A stretch of DNA of 62,921 nt, the filler included, from Sphacelaria rigidula (Eukaryota): assembly GCA_964200075.2 (NCBI GenBank). It is 9 parts of 9 records of this genome, joined end to end, with 100 filler letters (N's around TTAATTAATTAA, not from the genome) between each part and the next. Parts side by side here need not be neighbours in the genome. Positions count along the whole stretch, not along the records: positions 14,008 to 20,910 come from CAXNAA020017492.1; 8 more parts are not named here. One strand, given 5' to 3'. This document shows positions 6,905 to 21,079 of this stretch, piece after piece (positions within the stretch are counted from its first letter, which is position 1; each line of letters opens with the position of its first letter). The notes below the pieces were generated by a model. It saw only the letters and a program-made list of their open reading frames with translations. It searched no databases and was not told the origin of the DNA. A program made the position numbers and the translations under genes.

Positions 6905-7004
6905 NNNNNNNNNNNNNNNNNNNNNNNNNNNNNNNNNNNNNNNNNNNNTTAATTAATTAANNNNNNNNNNNNNNNNNNNNNNNNNNNNNNNNNNNNNNNN
7001 NNNN
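6905..7004. other. Artificial contig spacer (N44-TTAATTAATTAA-N44); also at 13908, 20911, 27914, 34916, 41918, 48920 and 55921
   Basis: 100-nt spacers carrying stops in all six frames, recurring about every 7.0 kb. Confidence 0.99.
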
Positions 7005-13071: not shown

Positions 13072-13710
13072 CCTTATCGGGGACATACTGGTTACCGGCA
13101 CAGTATCTTGATACATTGCGGCACAATATCTTGACACATTATATGTAAATTTATTCCAGATCTGTTCATCGAGTTATTTTATATTTACCATCTTACGACT
13201 CATGCATTTGGGTTCTGTGGAGCTTTGTCATATTTTGGCTGTACTATTCACAAGATTTGAGAACGATTCGCACCACAGCATTTCACGTCTGAAGGTGTTG
13301 GAACAGACATAGTCACTTGTTGCGGTAGTTTGCAAGGGATGTTTAACACCTGCGGGTTATGTACCAAATCCGTCTAGTTTCATGTCCGAAAGCCCAACGC
13401 TATCAGCGCTTCCCCGGTTCACCCGGTCTAGTCGCGAAAAGCTAGTCGCAAAAATAAAAATAAGAATAAAGAAACAATAGACCACAACTCACGATACCGG
13501 TGGCCCGCATCCTATTGATCCTGTGTCAAACGTGCGTTATGGCTTGATCAATTCGCAGAGAAAGGGGGGAGCTCGCAGCAGCATTAAACCGGGGATTCTG
13601 TCGAATGAGGTTGATCAACGAAATGAGGTTTGAGGAGGCTAGCCAGTATGCGACAAAAACCCGAGGGAAGTACCGTCAACAAGTGCCTTCGATCGATACC
13701 GGGGGGGGGT

Positions 13711-13812
13711 GGGCGTACTCATTTGTTGCTTGCCTTCATCGTTTGACCATTGACCACGCCCCGTCTCGAAAGGTCGATAGTCAAACGACTAAGGCAAGCA
13801 ACCAATGAGTAC

Positions 13813-13816
<4 letters not shown>
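13711..13816. repeat. Palindromic copy of the ATGAGTACG micro-element
   Basis: Arms of ~45 bp (GGGCGTACTCATTTGTTGCTTGCCTT.. / ..AAGGCAAGCAACCAATGAGTACGCCC) with a ~16-nt loop, between a G run and a C run. Confidence 0.85.
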
Positions 13817-13843
<27 letters not shown>

Positions 13844-14007
13844 CACCCGCCCCCCCCCGCACGTCCCCACCCGCCCCGGCGCGCCCTCCCTCGCCTCCTC
13901 CCCCCCCNNNNNNNNNNNNNNNNNNNNNNNNNNNNNNNNNNNNNNNNNNNNTTAATTAATTAANNNNNNNNNNNNNNNNNNNNNNNNNNNNNNNNNNNNN
14001 NNNNNNN

Positions 14008-14225
14008 GACTTGACGGTCGACGAGGGAAAGGGACTGCTGGAGCCCTGTCGCGATAAAGAATAAAGACAAGCACCGCAGAAGGAAGGTGGGGTACTAAAA
14101 ACAAATAAAATAAAAAAAAGCTCCTGTTTTGACCTTCCTTCTGTGTGATCCCGGCTGGTGTGCCCACATATACCGAAAGGTGTAGACTGGTGCCCAGAAT
14201 AGATGGGACGACAACACAACACACA
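14008..14225 (+). mobile_element. SINE family A, cut by the contig start
   Basis: Colinear with 58740-58980 (ACGGTCG.CGAGGG.AAGGGACTGCTG..CGCGATAAA..TGTGTGATCCCGG..CCGAAA..TGTAGAC). Confidence 0.75.
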
Positions 14226-14639
14226 TTCTTTTTTTCACGTCTTAGTTTACTATGCCGTTCTGTTCGACTTTTTTCTCTTCCTTCTTTCCTTGAGCGAGTG
14301 TTTCGGTTGTGCTTTTTCTTGGGTACGTCTACCATGCGACCACGGCTGGACCCCTGGGGGGTCTGTTCAAGTGCGACAATCAATCAATCCACTAATCAAC
14401 ACAACCCACCCCGCCCGTGTGCCGCGAGTATTCTAGACGTGTTGAAAAACATGCATGCAAAATTGACGCTTGATGGGCACGTGTCCCCCCCCATCACGCT
14501 TGAATTATCATCACGTCAAAACTCGTTGGTTATACGGAGCAACACACCCCTTTCCTGGAAGCGAATTTTGAAGCCAACGCCGTGAGGTCGAAAATCTCGT
14601 CAAGAGCAGACCATACTCGCGACCTATCCGGAACATGTA

Positions 14640-14745
14640 CTTCTACTTTCCATTTTATATCCATTTGTCGCACTTTGAACCCCCCCCTGCCCCCCTCCTC
14701 GGGATGAGCCCGTGGTCTCAGGGGATCAACTCATCTCTCCCCCCG
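14640..14745 (-). mobile_element. 3' fragment of SINE family B
   Basis: Similar to ~40270-40365 (CATTT.TCGCACTTTGAACC..CCTCG.GA.GAG.CCGTGGTCT..CTCTCCCCC). Confidence 0.6.
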
Positions 14746-14752
14746 TTGCACA

Positions 14753-14790
14753 ATGGTCTTATGACTATGGCATGCATGATGATGAATACA
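14753..14790 (+). mobile_element. 38-bp micro-insertion (ATGAGTACA subfamily) with 14-bp TSD
   Basis: Flanked by CCCCCCGTTGCACA (14739-14752) and CCCCCCGTTGTACA (14791-14804). Confidence 0.8.
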
Positions 14791-14839
14791 CCCCCCGTTG
14801 TACAGCGGCAACTAGGCTAAGTATTAGTAGCCAACTTAC

Positions 14840-14889
14840 CCGGAGCAACGCTTGCTGTACTCAATGCCGTGCCATCCGTTGTCGTGCAC
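14840..14889 (-). CDS. Mannuronan C-5 epimerase-like gene, fourth visible exon
   Basis: CAG|GTG acceptor and GG|GTAAGT donor. Encodes VHDNGWHGIEYSKRCS, matching the epimerase HDNG.HGII.SKRC motif. Confidence 0.85.
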
Positions 14890-15264
14890 CTGTGTGGGTA
14901 CAACACAGGAGCGTACAGTAGATCAATGGGGAATCAGATCAGCGTCAGTTAGACCGGTTCGGAAATTCCCGCGAAATTTCCTCGGACGAAGATGGTGGAT
15001 GGTCTCGACCGTCCTTGGATACAAGAGTCGGCGGCAAAGTGGACAAGATACTGTATAACGTCCGCTGAGGATGAGAAATCGGAATAACGACGACCGCGAA
15101 ACCCGTCAGCAAACGAGCAATTTCACAGAGAATCCTACTGCGAATCAACTCTAATGGATGAGCAAGCTTTTCAAAGTCTTGGTTTTCAGCTTCTAAAAAC
15201 TGTGCTTGTCAGTTCTAGAGAGCCGTGGCCTTCAAGCCAAGAATATTGTGTTTGTGCTCCTCAC

Positions 15265-15380
15265 GTAGTTGTCAAATATGGTCATGCCATCGCTGTTGTC
15301 CTGCGGGTTCAGTCCATTGAGGTAGTTGTCGTACACCTCGTTGCCGCTCCAGCTGCTGCTGCCTTTCATACCGTAGCAGT
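15265..15380 (-). CDS. Mannuronan C-5 epimerase-like gene, third visible exon (active-site strand)
   Basis: CAG| acceptor and |GTGAGG donor. Encodes (Y)CYGMKGSSSWSGNEVYDNYLNGLNPQDNSDGMTIFDNY; phases match both neighbours. Confidence 0.88.
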
Positions 15381-15603
15381 CTGGACAGCGACGGGCGAGG
15401 GGGCGAGATCTTCAGTGTTTGCCACACCAAAAAGCAAGCAACAAAAAGCGCACCACTAGCTCTGCAAAAAGCAAAGCAACACCCGTGTCTGAAATATTTC
15501 GTTGGGAGAATTTTGCCAAAGCAAGCCACACGATGCCGTTCATTTGACGCCTGTCCAAAAAATCATAACATCGAAACCCTTACAGCCGGCGTCTTGAACC
15601 CAC

Positions 15604-15744
15604 ATGCGCCCATATAGTTGTCGTGGAGCTTGTTGTTGGTGAGCGTTCCGTACACGCCCAGCCTGTCGAAGAGCGTCACGTTGTCACCTCCAGGGTAGCG
15701 GTCGTCGAATCCCAAGACCTTCCACACGAGCCCATAGTCTTCGT
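15604..15744 (-). CDS. Mannuronan C-5 epimerase-like gene, second visible exon
   Basis: CAG| acceptor and T|GTGGGT donor. Encodes (D)EDYGLVWKVLGFDDRYPGGDNVTLFDRLGVYGTLTNNKLHDNYMGA; compare brown-algal YGLTWKVRGF..LFD.V.VYG. Confidence 0.88.
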
Positions 15745-16524
15745 CTGCTCTCGCATTTCAACAGCACAAAGCACAAAGTTGAACACAAACACGGGAAGCG
15801 TGCACATTTTGCGTTCGTGGGGCATGACAAAGGAGGTTCTATGCTAATATGAGCCGTCCTTGACTTTTGCACAGGTACTGTACAAGTGTGAGTTCGACTT
15901 TGGAACGCCCATCGATGGGCGTCTACGACGTTGACAGATGTATCGTACATGCGCGTTCGGCAACGCAAGCTTGCAAAGCGTCAGCACCAAATGCCATAGC
16001 ATCGACACAACGGCGGAATACGACAGCACGCGAGACTAGAGCGGACACGCTCAGGCAGTTTTTACCGGCAAATGTCTATAACAAATGTCCATACCAAGGG
16101 CACACCACACAGCACTCCTCTGCGGCGGTACTAGGACCGAACACGGTTTACTGAGGCAAAGTTGCCAAGTAAGAGGCAACGGTGATCCGCCACTAGACTT
16201 TGCCTTATTGATAAAAATGCTTCCTCCTTCCGAGCAAGCACGTTCAATGGTTCAGAAGCTACATTGAAATAATGCAAAACATGACCCCCCCACCCCCGCC
16301 CACCCCCCCCGGTCTCACCCGGCGCGCGCTCCGGTGTGTGTGAAATGTTACTATTATTTTGAGAGAATTGCAAAATCAGCTGGATGAGTCTTGACGTATA
16401 TCCGTTGCACGCGGCCTCATCGGGCACTTGTCAACATATTTGCATTGTACTCCTGCGCAGCTTACTTCACCTACCTCATGCCCCTCCTCATCCCCTCTTG
16501 TGTCTTTTGTACGCTGTGACTCAC

Positions 16525-16762
16525 CCAGGTCGTTGTGGTAATCCCCCTCGTTACCGAGGTACGAGATCTCGCTGTCTGTCACGTCCATGCGGGAAGTGAA
16601 CGCCTGGCCTTCCGACTCGCTGCTTAGAGCCGCGATGTAGGCCCTGCCCTCAAGACGCTCATCGGGTCCATCCAAAGAGGCATCGTATGACGTAATTGTG
16701 GTACCCATGATGGATATTTTTCCCGGTTGGGCGATGATGGACGCCGCCGAGTCCTCATCGCT
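16525..16762 (-). CDS. Mannuronan C-5 epimerase-like gene, first visible exon
   Basis: TAG| acceptor and G|GTGAGT donor. Encodes SDEDSAASIIAQPGKISIMGTTITSYD..GPDE..GRAYIAALS..RMDVTDSEISYLG; compare TSWD..PD..GRSYI..RMDI.DSEI.YLG. Confidence 0.88.
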
Positions 16763-17032
16763 CTAATGATATGGGGAAAATCGCGGGCGTCGCACGATGG
16801 GACTGTGTTAGAATCAAGCATATGTAGGATGAGGAAGCACGGACAGTGACGGTGACTCGTGTAGCGCGATCGACTGATCAGAAAACTGCACTCTACACTG
16901 TGGTTTTCGTCATGTCCCACCTCCCGGGATTTCCGCTCTAGGGCCTTGATAGATAGATAGGCGGGCTGGCGGTCTCTGTGAGCCGCTGGCGCCTGCTAAT
17001 GAACGCGAGGTATTCATCAGCCCCCGTGCGAG

Positions 17033-17074
17033 GTCGATCATCTTATGACTATGGCATGCATGATCATGAGTACA
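17033..17074 (+). mobile_element. Micro-insertion (ATGAGTACA subfamily)
   Basis: GGTCGATCATCTTATGACTATGGCATGCATGATCATGAGTACA flanked by CCCCGTG on both sides. Confidence 0.7.
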
Positions 17075-18470
17075 CCCCGTGATGAGAAGTCTTCGCGTTG
17101 CACCAGTTATTCTCGCGGATCACATACCGCCAGGCTTTGGGCCAGCGAATGGGCGCGCTAATGAACCCAAAATAAAACCACCACCCCCAGGCGCTGGGAT
17201 GACAGTCTCTCAGGTCATGGATATGGGCCACCAGGACCCGGCATTCGTACGTATGTGGGCAAGCCGATATGGAGATAATGCCAGACTGAGGAGAGGTGCG
17301 GCTACAACGAGCCGCCCCCTTGGTAGAGCATGTCAATAACGCATAAAGGACTGCCTCGAGTAGGAGACGTTCCCGAGTCCACAAGAGAGGGGGACCAATG
17401 TCTTGACGCCGTGTGTGGCTATGTTTTTTTTCAGGCGTTTCTGCCAAAGCGGGTGGTGGTGTCCGGCGTCTGAATTAACTTTGATATAGTAGCCAGCTAT
17501 TTCAGGAGTATATCGAATTGAACATAAGACCTACCTCAATATAACTTGCTACTAGTATACTGATCTTGATCATGAGATATTTAGCTCATTTGGCCCCCCT
17601 TTCCCCGTTTGCTCTCTACAGCGCTGGGCGCACAGCACGTGGAGTAGTAGCGTTTTCACTTATCGGACCTTGCTGTCAGATATACCACGTCTTGTGTGCT
17701 CGGACAAGGGGTCCGAGAGTCCTATTCGATTAGTGATTTTAGGTACAGTAGCTCATGAGCTGTCCGACGTATGAAGACTTTCAAAATCGATAACACAGAA
17801 GCTCAGGTGTTCGTTCATGATGAACAAATCTCCTCCCCCCTCACCACGTCGCCCCGCATGGCGTGTTCTTCGAAGCTTTCGACACGCGGCTTCACCTGCA
17901 CCCCCGCGATGCGGCTAAGATGATCATGTATCACAGTGACAATGGTTTACACGTCGCTGGACGGAATTTTCGAACAGTGTCGTGACACCGGGTATATCTG
18001 TGGCGTAGCTTCGGATTCGGGGCATTTTCGGCGACAATAAACGATGGCTAAGTTACTCCAAAGTTCGAAATTCGACACCTGAAAAACAAATCTTGACGAG
18101 AGGAGTAGAGGGGGGCGATTTTTTAAATATATATATACCTGATTGTTGAGCTCGCCAGAGGTTTTACGGTTTTGCCAGCTGTTACTCTCCACATCACCAC
18201 GTAGCGCTTGTAGGGATATCCCTCCCGTTCCCAGGAGCTTTGTTCTTTGCAACTTACGGGCAGCAACGTTGGACAACACCCCCCCTCTCTTGCACGTGTG
18301 TGAGAAAGGGATCAACGATTTCATCCAAGAGTATTAACGTAGGGATTTGTCATAATCGATAGGATGAGATGTAAGCATTATGGTAATGCCTTTCCGGTCC
18401 CAACAGGTGTCGCTATCCGTATGTTACGGGTCAACAAACGGTAGCCAACAGCCCCCAAGCGTACTCGGGG

Positions 18471-18522
18471 TGTACTCATGATCTTGCATGCCATAGTCAT
18501 ACGACCATCGACCTCAACCTGT
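18471..18522 (-). mobile_element. Micro-insertion (ATGAGTACA subfamily)
   Basis: Flanked by the degenerate direct repeat CAAGCGTACTCGGGG / CAAGCGAACTTGAGG. Confidence 0.65.
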
Positions 18523-18776
18523 CAAGCGAACTTGAGGAGGGAATGAAAAAAAATGATCTAGCGAATATGAAGGACGCCGGGGTATCATAAATCAAGACGA
18601 TGGGACACAGCGTTCGAGGAGACAGTGAGTCGATTTCATCCTTGGAGGAACACGGTGAAGGGTCGCAATTAATCAATAGGGTGTAAGTGTTGTAGTGATA
18701 TATTTTCGGTCCCGACAGGCATCGCCATCAGTACGCTACGGGCCAATACGGTAATAGCAGCCCTGTAAGTGTGGGG

Positions 18777-18902
18777 GGGGCGTACTCATTTGTTGCTTGC
18801 CTTAGTCATTTGACCATTGACCACGCATCCCTTTCGAGACGGAGCACCGTTCCTACTTCTAATAGAGCCACCTCCAACATTCTGGCGCTCATTACGTTCC
18901 TT
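18777..18902 (-). mobile_element. Micro-insertion (ATGAGTACG subfamily) with 16-bp TSD
   Basis: CCCTGTAAGTGTGGGG at 18761-18776 and again at 18903-18918. Confidence 0.8.
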
Positions 18903-20159
18903 CCCTGTAAGTGTGGGGAGGGGATTAAACGACTTCATCCCCAGGATCGGAGTGTAGGGCAGTTATCATGAGGTAATGGGGTATTATATAGTCATTAATT
19001 AATGGGGTATTATATAGCGGCTGTGTAGATACTTTTCCCATTCCCAGGAGTATCCTCATTCGCACGCTACTGGCGAAAACGTCAGGTGACACCCCCTGAG
19101 CGTGCTTGGGGGGGAGATGAAACGATTTCATCCCCTGGGTGGGACAAGAGGGATCCACTAATCGTCAGGGACGGGTGCAGACGTCCTCGTCGTGCGTCTC
19201 CCGTTTCCAAGGACATCGCCATTCGTACCTCATAGGCCAAAACGATCGATATCACCCCCTAGGGGTGCACGGCCAGGAGGGGGTGCGTTGATATTATCCC
19301 CTGGGGGATGGGGATATCCGAATCTCCGGATATTCTACTGTGCTAGTAATACACCCATTATAGTCAGGGTCAGAGCCATTAGTCTGAAATACACGGCAAA
19401 ACGGTACATAATGCCCCCCCTCGATACGGCGGATATCACTCGTCGGGGATGATCGGTATTTTCCCCTGCCGAACTATGCATCCTCCGGCCAAATCCAAGT
19501 TCACCCAATCGACGTTCTTCAGTAATACCCGTCAAGTACCAGGGGTGCACAAAACAAATTCGGCAGAGATACGTACGATCCATAGGCTATGCCCGCGACA
19601 ATACCACAGTCAACACACGAATTTGTTTGCAAGCAGATAAAGCTCAACCACCTACATGACAGCCGGGCAAAAAACACAGCCCACGCACGAGAACTTATCT
19701 ACTTCTGTGCAGTATCAAATCAAGATAAGAGCGGAGCAACACATAAACGGTCAGCAACGACATGTTTTCTCCAATACAGAACAAAGAGTGTTTAGATACT
19801 CATTTGCGGCACAATAACCCATGCGTACAGAGGATATTTTCCAACGGACGAGGGTAAACACAAAAAGTAACCGGGTTGCCTGCTTGTCAATCGTGTACGA
19901 TAAGCTATCGGCTGCTGGCGGTGATCCTTCGTCCGTTTGTGTGGTTCGTTTGTGTGAGGGGTTCGCTTCGCTGGGCGTGTGCGTGCTGTCGTGCTGAGCG
20001 CGCGCGATATGATGCGCCGTCTCTCTTGTGCAGGGTGGATTGAAAACTGTATCGGTTGCCGGCGACAGCACCGTAGTGAAAGCACAATTTCGTTTGCGAG
20101 CAAGTAGAGCCCAACCAAGTGCATGACAGCCGCCGTCAATCCAGTAATTTCTTGCCATA

Positions 20160-20210
20160 CAATATGCGGGTCACGGCCTAACTCGTCTGCGTCGATGAGG
20201 TATTGCTTTG
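20160..20210 (-). repeat. Short dispersed repeat; second copy at ~43875-43925 (+)
   Basis: GCAATA.CTCATCGAC.CAGACGAGTT.GGCCGTGA.CC.CATAT is shared by both copies; possibly a LINE 3' end. Confidence 0.55.
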
Positions 20211-21079
20211 AGCAGCTCGTCATCAGAAATAAAGAAGAGAAAAATGAAAGAGCGAAAGAATGAAACAATAAACATGAAGGAAGGAATACAAAGACAAGAA
20301 GACAGGGCCAGGATCATTTCCGAGGGGGGAGGGGTGGGGGGAAGGGTGCACGCAGAAGAAACAAAAAACAGACAAGAAACCACCAAGAACAAGAGATGGA
20401 CAAATCAGAGATAGAAACCAAATACAGCGAATATTGAAATATCGGATGGCAATTGATGTGACCCAATTTATTTTCTCATCGGTGAAGGAACGAGCTACTG
20501 GATGAGGGCGTGTCTTGAGAGCTGGGCCAGCCTAGAGGCTGCATGAAAGTTTGCAGGCGGATGTGCCGGGCAAAATATAGAGTTGACCCCTGAAATTTGG
20601 TATGGACAATGCACAGAGCATATTAAAAAAGTCGGGAAGAAGCACATGAAGGTTTTGTTTTTTTCTTCGTGAGATAAGGGCGTTTTGCTGAAACCTGAAA
20701 ACGGATTATTGCCCTTAACCCTTTTGGGACCGGGGACCGGACCTCCAGAACGACCAATGAGGCTGGTCAGGAATGACGTGTCTGGCGTCTAAACGAAACA
20801 GTGGCGTGTTGCTGAAAATCCGCATATATATGTAACTGCAGGGTTATGACGAAGACCGAAAGTTTCATCTAGTCTGTTTTCAGGTGCAGGGTGCGCATTA
20901 GGTGGTGTACNNNNNNNNNNNNNNNNNNNNNNNNNNNNNNNNNNNNNNNNNNNNTTAATTAATTAANNNNNNNNNNNNNNNNNNNNNNNNNNNNNNNNNN
21001 NNNNNNNNNNCGTCTAGAATCGTTAGGAGCCTCTGAACCAGACAGAATTCCGCGAAAAAAGTGCACCCCTCCCGTAGCA

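Follow-up and report, generated by a model that had tools for sequence, protein, structure and literature searches.

What does a mannuronan C5-epimerase (ManC5-E) become when the Tyr, Asp and His residues of its active-site motif are replaced and the motifs that flank them are kept? The question is raised by four exons on the minus strand of a 62,921-base stretch of DNA (hereafter the window) from Sphacelaria rigidula, assembly GCA_964200075.2. The four exons are the centre of an intact and apparently transcribed gene, which belongs to a brown-alga-wide lineage of the AlgG/ManC5-E family. The motif codons at positions 15298-15318 read AAT GGA CTG AAC CCG CAG GAC and encode N-G-L-N-P-Q-D in place of Y-G-(F/I/L)-D-P-H-D; the lineage is referred to below as NPQD after these residues. 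With a confidence that we put at about even, sequence comparison suggests that the NPQD protein is a maintained, secreted and non-epimerising protein that still uses its groove, most likely as a binder of mannuronan or alginate.

The spliced protein reads ...YDNYLNGLNPQDNSD... where epimerases carry YG(F/I)DPH(D/E), and the motif lies in the frame of exon C within ...NEVYDNYLNGLNPQDNSDGMTI.... A phmmer search of the Saccharina orthologue against the sequences of the Protein Data Bank (PDB) matches AlgG only (4 distinct sequences, E 1.6e-9 to 3.4e-9), and the alignment places NGMNPQD of the orthologue directly on YGIDPHD of AlgG and SKR on SRE. The original prediction held that a protein colinear with mannuronan C-5 epimerases had exchanged all three catalytic residues (Y to N, D to N and H to Q), and both parts are borne out, the exchange by the codons and the colinearity by the alignment to AlgG through the orthologue. 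The flanking motifs that it described as persisting, YGLVWKV in exon B and VHDNGWHGIEYSKRC in exon D, are both present. The lysine of the invariant SKRC is aligned on the arginine of ...IISRE in AlgG, 26 residues past the motif histidine; counted from His319, this arginine would be Arg345. The Tyr/Asp/His motif of the epimerase family is lost in the window copy and in all orthologues, and the carboxylate-neutralising basic residue at the Arg345 position is retained and invariant in the clade.

The four exons splice in the order A to D on the minus strand. Exon A (16525-16762, 238 nt, SDEDSAAS...GDYHNDL) encodes the first helix rungs, about residues 121-201 of the Saccharina protein P0005, and is matched by P0001 in tblastn at E 1e-34. 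It is separated by the 780-nt GT..AG intron A/B (15745-16524) from exon B (15604-15744, 141 nt, DEDYGLVWKV...NNKLHDNYMGA). The 223-nt intron B/C (15381-15603, donor GTGGGT, acceptor CAG) leads to exon C (15265-15380, 116 nt, (Y)CYGMKGSSSWSGNEVYDNYLNGLNPQDNSDGMTIFDNY), which holds the former catalytic strand, and the 375-nt intron C/D (14890-15264, donor GTGAGG, acceptor CAG) leads to exon D (14840-14889, 50 nt, VHDNGWHGIEYSKRCS(G)), which ends in phase 2 before GTAAGT. Exons B and C are placed by tblastn, contigs and splice sites, and exon D by tblastn and splice sites. All four exons have AG before and GT after them, with donors GTGAGT, GTGGGT, GTGAGG and GTAAGT, and the joined frame is open over 181 codons without a stop. 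The exon coordinates, splice sites and open frame first proposed for this locus therefore stand, and three internal junctions are found in contigs. Two points are made more precise: the B/C junction takes its donor, GTGGGT, at 15603 rather than the GTAAGG that follows a few codons later, which gives the protein sequence ...HDNYMGAYCYGMKG..., and the exons are the middle of the gene only.

Transcript evidence comes from a search of sequencing runs with a 2,201-base query. Of 11 runs listed, 9 contain part of the stretch, and none of them is recorded as RNA. A single study supplied four small runs (X6-X9), which the tool labelled "RNA?" and which contain 0.28-0.33 of the sampled words, a value near the exon share of the query (about 0.25; 545 nt). 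X6, X7 and X8 were compared with the best DNA-type run, X1, over positions 14008-20910 at the level of contigs. One contig in each of the three RNA-like runs (1244, 1115 and 1234 nt; depth 533, 730 and 235, respectively) joins all four exons, and each of the skipped parts runs from CT to AC on the plus strand, equivalent to GT..AG in the direction of the gene. The joints 14889|15265, 15380|15604 and 15744|16525 occur in each of the three runs, in which the intron bins have a depth of 0-5. X1, in contrast, is without any exon-exon joint, and a single X1 contig spans 14853-17066 without a break, introns included. For intron C/D, 14886|15262 fits the contigs as well as 14889|15265, a shift of three places. 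Exon A is covered over 16525-16764 by RNA-like contig, and the contigs extend 581-710 nt further in the 5' direction, outside the piece of the window that holds the exons. The 30 letters past 16764 were reverse-complemented and translated by hand; they give ...AVSLLRLK, in frame with the SDED that follows, where the orthologues have AVSLLKLKSD. Because of the contig joints and this in-frame 5' extension, the gene appears to be expressed and spliced as predicted, with a transcript that continues into a proper upstream exon.

The donor of exon D at 14839 is predicted from homology, and the RNA-like contigs reach 14853-14886 only. The contigs of X1 and X6-X8 all break at exactly 14853, within exon D and 13 nt before its predicted end. 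We read this as an assembly break beside a high-copy repeat or a variant, not as the end of the transcript; heterozygosity at this position, or a second copy in which the next 30 bases are identical, would account for it.

The middle position of the exons follows from how the window is built. It consists of nine pieces of ~6.9 kb joined by N44-TTAATTAATTAA-N44 linkers, which lie at 6905-7004, 13908-14007 and 20911-21010 and then every ~7003 bases (16 runs of 44 N, in eight pairs). The epimerase-like exons are all within the piece 14008-20910 (CAXNAA020017492.1) and cover approximately residues 121-302 of 485, and the N-terminal exons (~120 codons) and C-terminal exons (~180 codons) fall outside it. 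A tblastn search of the whole window with four orthologues (E up to 20, short words) recovers the four exons only, since the window is a composite of separate pieces. The idea that the locus is a gene fragment was dropped once the linkers revealed the composite window and the RNA-like contig was seen to extend 5' in frame. Pieces that adjoin in the window need not be neighbours in the genome, and an apparent feature across a linker is an artefact.

How widely the altered motif occurs was assessed by protein searches. A search with exon A by itself returned 13 proteins, with 82% identity for the best, and one with the full Saccharina japonica protein P0005 (485 residues) returned 56 proteins at E <= 1e-5. 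Ten close orthologues stand out at 49-100% identity, and bacterial beta-helix proteins and Ectocarpus MEP10 come next, at 25-38%; MEP10 and the bacterial homologues are matched at E 1e-52 to 1e-60 with 33-38% identity. The orthologues come from Saccharina, Ectocarpus, Ascophyllum, Sphacelaria, Scytosiphon, Choristocarpus, Discosporangium, two EukProt entries and one Logan contig, with one NPQD gene per species among the matches. None of them retains DPHD; all ten carry x-G-x-NPQDNSD, specifically (N/V)G(L/I/M)NPQD, together with GWHGIE(Y/F/I)SKRC. UniRef and nr list P0005 under "Mannuronate C5-epimerase", a name given by similarity only, and the nearest cluster in the ESM Atlas is a "Mannuronan C-5-epimerase family protein" (score 0.95), which supports membership of the family and nothing beyond it.

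A wider HMMER search of 1.84 billion representative sequences gives 994 matches at E <= 0.001. The motif was tallied in 208 proteins, made up of the best 150 of these 994 and the proteins from the exon A and P0005 searches. They contain 272 domain stretches, 220 of which cover the motif: 145 have YGxDPH, 10 are of the NPQD type and the rest are scattered variants. The NPQD types among the 220 stretches are exactly the ten orthologues, and all canonical brown-algal rows in the alignment (64/64) keep Y, G, D and H. Many of the variants occur in long unnamed proteins with tandem domains, so that loss of the motif recurs in the superfamily, yet NPQD, as judged from these sequences, is specific to the brown-algal lineage. 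The degenerate A-module-like domains (P0063-P0069, P0107, P0122) have lost the motif in other ways, for example as YGLDLQD, NGITLKY and YDFDAAD; they occur as additional domains of proteins 1000-3170 residues long, in many cases beside a canonical domain, and none is NPQD. Unlike these tandem domains, the brown-algal NPQD protein is a stand-alone, single-domain protein of an orthologous lineage. The catalytic His has also been lost recurrently in another, separate way, in P0064, P0065, P0066, P0107 and P0122 (1000-2500 residues), in which two or three tandem domains all read YG(L/I)D(L/V/M)QD, with Tyr and Asp kept and His replaced by Gln. Among metagenome contigs, 149 pattern matches were found, none of which was confirmed.

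The age of the lineage was approached by phylogeny. A query with a canonical brown-algal epimerase retrieves 228 proteins (120 listed, many of them named). A quick tree under LG+G4 was built from 105 domains, comprising the 10 NPQD sequences, 64 named canonical brown-algal ones and 31 bacterial or metagenomic ones; two rows that were too short had been dropped from the alignment, and the seven motif columns were removed. Each group lies on one side of a branch (support 100, 97 and 96), and the NPQD group adjoins the canonical brown clade on a stem of 0.61. A second tree, under the posterior mean site frequency (PMSF) model, used 58 of the 105 rows (10 NPQD, 30 canonical from three subclades and 18 bacterial) and supports NPQD at 100/100, the canonical brown clade at 97/96 and the bacterial side at 100/99. 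The two trees agree in topology. With a root assumed among the bacterial rows, the placement of the clades in both trees argues that NPQD is a fourth lineage, sister to all three ManC5-E groups of Mazeas et al. 2024 and no recent offshoot of one of them. The lineage would then be older than the deepest brown-algal splits.

Conservation within the lineage bears on the claim that the gene is maintained. Of the 82 positions invariant in eight or more orthologues, the window copy (181 residues) keeps 80; its two departures, D to N and L to V, lie at positions 221-222 of P0005. Across seven species pairs, NPQD proteins share 52.8-76.2% identity, as compared with 53.1-67.1% for a canonical orthogroup, and NPQD is the higher in six of the seven pairs. 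Together with the spliced RNA-like contigs, these values uphold the earlier view of a maintained gene: strong constraint, judged from conservation at the protein level, shows that it is not a plain pseudogene. Catalytic residues are lost in a gene that is under purifying selection and expressed, according to the protein-level conservation and the RNA-like contigs, which is the combination expected of a pseudo-enzyme.

Nine sites are invariant in NPQD and fixed otherwise (at least 90%) in the canonical brown-algal rows, and they cluster at the active site. They include D to N, H to Q, D to N just past DPHD, I to E within HGIIASKRC and the exchange of H for M in YGH. Changes of Y to N/V and of A to Y are also observed. 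The new glutamate, E295, is invariant in the NPQD clade; the position is Ile in 100% of the canonical brown-algal rows and in 97% of the bacterial rows. In the structural model of P0005, the former catalytic sheet comprises strands 244-249, 270-273, 294-297, 318-321, 340-345, 362-367 and 386-391, which are taken as successive rungs of one sheet from their spacing of 22-26 residues. Of the 36 strand positions in this sheet, 27 are invariant across the ten orthologues, as against 4/18 and 3/21 in the other two sheets and 125/299 over residues 181-479. Because of this difference between the sheets, the former active-site face is what selection keeps. The conserved sheet indicates only that the groove is still in use.

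The model itself, predicted with AlphaFold2 (AF2) from a 61-row alignment, is a confident beta-helix (predicted local distance difference test score, pLDDT, 92.1; predicted template modelling score, pTM, 0.90). A Foldseek comparison with the PDB places AlgG at ranks 1-4 (4NK6, E 7e-14, template modelling score, TM, 0.60/0.69), AlgE4 at rank 5 and AlgE6 at rank 6, followed by tailspikes and GH28 enzymes; the structural check proposed at the outset returns AlgG as the best match. Full-length orthologues match the Pfam families PF13229 (Beta_helix) and PF05048 (NosD), and the protein belongs to the epimerase family both by its right-handed parallel beta-helix fold and by homology over the whole domain. 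The side chains that would face the groove were inferred from the model. At the N-terminus, each full-length orthologue has what looks like a signal peptide, followed by a Cys-rich stretch.

What the altered site could still do may be considered against the chemistry of active epimerases. In the available text of PMC4444821, the residue most likely to abstract H-5 is the DPHD histidine, the water that serves as proton donor is held by Tyr314 in AlgG, and an Arg of AlgG shields the carboxylate. According to the accessible parts of PMC8824271, the AlgE7 motif (149-YGFDPHE) tolerates little change, with ~0.5% activity left in Y149A/F/H and H154Y and almost none in H154F, and D152N is more active than D152E. 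As a single change at either His or Tyr leaves at most 0.5% activity, the joint loss of the base (His) and Tyr would most likely abolish epimerisation. The exchanges of Asp for Asn and His for Gln are like-for-like in size, and with these amides, the kept basic residue and a near-invariant groove, which is the most constrained part of the protein, a uronan chain is most likely still held. The site of action would be the secretory path or the wall, since the N-termini resemble signal peptides. There, a secreted non-catalytic binder may escort or shield nascent mannuronan, as AlgG does in the bacterial export complex; a different role would be to compete with the ~27 active epimerases and with lyases for sites in the wall. 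AlgG may serve as a precedent, by analogy, for a non-catalytic role of the epimerase fold: the available text of PMC4444821 reports that degraded oligomers only are formed without AlgG protein and that strains with mutated AlgG make mannuronan.

Several points weigh against a non-catalytic binder encoded by an intact gene. The RNA label of X6-X8 is a guess of the tool, the runs belong to one study, and the evidence consists of contigs rather than reads. The C-terminal 180 codons of the Sphacelaria rigidula copy lie outside the sequence seen, the rungs were assigned from the spacing of strands in the model as given by DSSP rather than from coordinates, and the signal peptide was judged by eye. 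An equally conserved groove is expected of an active enzyme, and the invariant new Glu near the old Asp position, together with D274, D277, K298, R299 and H321, could form a rebuilt centre. Were the window copy a decaying pseudogene or a captured fragment, the failure of tblastn at E up to 20 to find N- or C-terminal exons in the window and the high-copy repeat ends that flank the exons (14753-14794 and 17030-17079) would be accounted for. The piece ends at 14008 and 20910, however, so that missing exons are expected; the RNA-like contigs go on for 710 nt on the 5' side of exon A and keep the frame of the upstream exon of the orthologues, and the copy has no stops, four intact splice sites out of four and the 80 invariant residues, which makes decay or capture very improbable. 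It is improbable, too, to a lesser degree, that the protein is still a mannuronan C5-epimerase with other residues or water as base and acid. Its place in the family by fold and sequence, the filed name of the Saccharina orthologue, the activity kept in part by AlgE7 D152N (available text of PMC8824271) and the presence of H321 and the basic pair near the site would agree with such an enzyme. Against this, the name rests on similarity, His and Tyr are lost together in 10/10 orthologues where each single loss leaves at most 0.5% activity in AlgE7, and 64/64 canonical brown-algal members keep both.

A rebuilt enzyme is the main rival, which we hold tentatively, as less probable than a binder. 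The amides, the acid relocated to the next rung (Ile to Glu), D274/D277 and the Lys-Arg pair would make up a new catalytic centre, for a beta-elimination like that of PL6, assisted by Ca2+ (the neutraliser, with Lys the base and Arg the acid), for a hydrolase, or for an enzyme acting on another wall polymer. The conservation of the former active-site sheet (27/36) fits a rebuilt site equally well, E295 is invariant where canonical and bacterial members have Ile, and a long stem (0.61) followed by short internal branches has the shape of a functional shift and then fixation. Beta-helix lyases of PL6 employ Ca2+, Lys and Arg, as stated in the available text of PMC4444821, and epimerase and lyase chemistry share one site in AlgE7, as stated in that of PMC8824271. 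The K298-R299 pair, however, is already present as SKRC in canonical epimerases and is no new acquisition, the Ca2+ site is hypothetical, brown algae are already equipped with a large family of PL41 lyases (PMC11468063, in the text available), and amide swaps of like size are the classic mark of a derivative that only binds. A more far-reaching form is doubtful, and would make NPQD either a re-tooled, single-copy and universally kept enzyme with chemistry new to the fold family (a Lys/Arg eliminase assisted by Ca2+, or a hydrolase of alginate by which nascent mannuronan is trimmed or primed) or a partner that marks the mannuronan synthase complex. Binding of mannuronan or alginate remains the reading that we prefer.

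Compared with the brown-algal ManC5-E (MEP) proteins, NPQD has the same beta-helix domain (Beta_helix, NosD) at 30-35% identity. The two share YGLxWKV, HDNGxHGI, SKRC and GSD, an N-terminus that resembles a signal peptide, and a branch apart from the bacterial members (100/99). They differ in that NPQD has (N/V)GxNPQDN for YGxDPHDD and HGIEYSKRC for HGIIASKRC. Copy number differs as well, with one NPQD gene per species among the matches and an average of 27 canonical genes per genome in the available text of Mazeas et al. 2024 (PMC11468063). That text describes three ManC5-E orthologous groups in brown algae, all sequences with DPHD, and NPQD lies outside all three; since the paper gives DPHD for all ManC5-E, NPQD is not among the lineages described in the part of it available. 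Pseudomonas AlgG (PDB 4NK6) is the best match both in sequence (E 1.6e-9) and in structure, with ~17% identity over the structural alignment, and NPQD has a basic residue at its Arg345 position. AlgG is an active, bacterial and periplasmic enzyme with Tyr314, Asp317 and His319, and it also has a role independent of catalysis, in that mutated AlgG supports the polymer and loss of the protein does not (PMC4444821, in the text available).

The PL41 lyase SjAly of Saccharina japonica resembles the NPQD protein in being brown-algal, secreted, predicted as a parallel beta-helix and linked to alginate (PMC6426991). SjAly has 359 residues and FirrV-1-B30-like relatives and was modelled on a PL9 lyase (PMC6426991), whereas NPQD has ~485 residues and ManC5-E and AlgG as its nearest relatives; NPQD is set apart from PL41 by published description only. 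Full-text literature searches and reviews, to which Fischl 2016 and Michel 2010 were outside scope, returned neither NPQD nor an inactive ManC5-E member, and the literature match for "NPQD" with "epimerase" concerns an unrelated subject, judged by its title. "NPQD" and "SKRC" were not found in the supplements of PMC11468063, whose alignments are not searchable text, so that this blank says little. The protein sequences of the orthologues are already public, one under the name "Mannuronate C5-epimerase"; we found no description of the lineage itself, which is apparently undescribed.

The introns of the gene hold repeated sequences. A high-copy short repeat, the end of a transposable element (repeat families D2, I4 and I5), occupies 14753-14794 in the intron 3' of exon D and is not part of the gene product; its bin has a word depth of 3.5e5 in X1, compared with 64 for unique sequence. 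An inverted-repeat element (I4) spans 17030-18515 in the intron 5' of exon A, with 50-nt ends at 17030-17079 and 18466-18515 that are 92% complementary and 1386 nt between them; depth over 17011-17241 is 1.4e6 in X1, and the open reading frames (ORFs) of the element have no match in Pfam. The short repeat TCTTATGACTATGGCATGCATGAT...TACACCCC stands beside G/C runs, in direct and inverted copies, at 14753-14794, 17030-17079 and 18466-18515. An abundant element family like miniature inverted-repeat transposable elements (MITEs) is thus present in the gene's introns, at word depths of 1e5-1e6 in X1. A second high-copy repeat, a 55-nt near-palindrome, lies at 13701-13826 with a further copy at 18773-18826; depth across the piece peaks in the bin 18628-18858, at 4.8e6 in X1, and chimeric joints are numerous there. 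Rfam gave no match on 14008-20910, and Pfam gave no family for the seven ORFs of 16800-20910. The four single exons, being too short, gave no Pfam family either (E up to 1), unlike the full orthologues, which have Pfam matches.

In brown seaweeds the principal polymer of the wall is alginate, which is also made use of by industry, and alginate epimerases have been studied as a large redundant family with DPHD reported throughout. The NPQD lineage departs from that picture: it is roughly single-copy, would predate the deepest brown-algal splits, and has the fold and groove of an epimerase without the residues for proton transfer. If the protein is a binder, it would be a natural "reader" of alginate that could serve as a probe and might offer a way to the mannuronan synthase machinery; were it an enzyme, it would show how the site of an epimerase can be rebuilt. 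Either way, NPQD genes are to be left out of functional epimerase counts in genome surveys.

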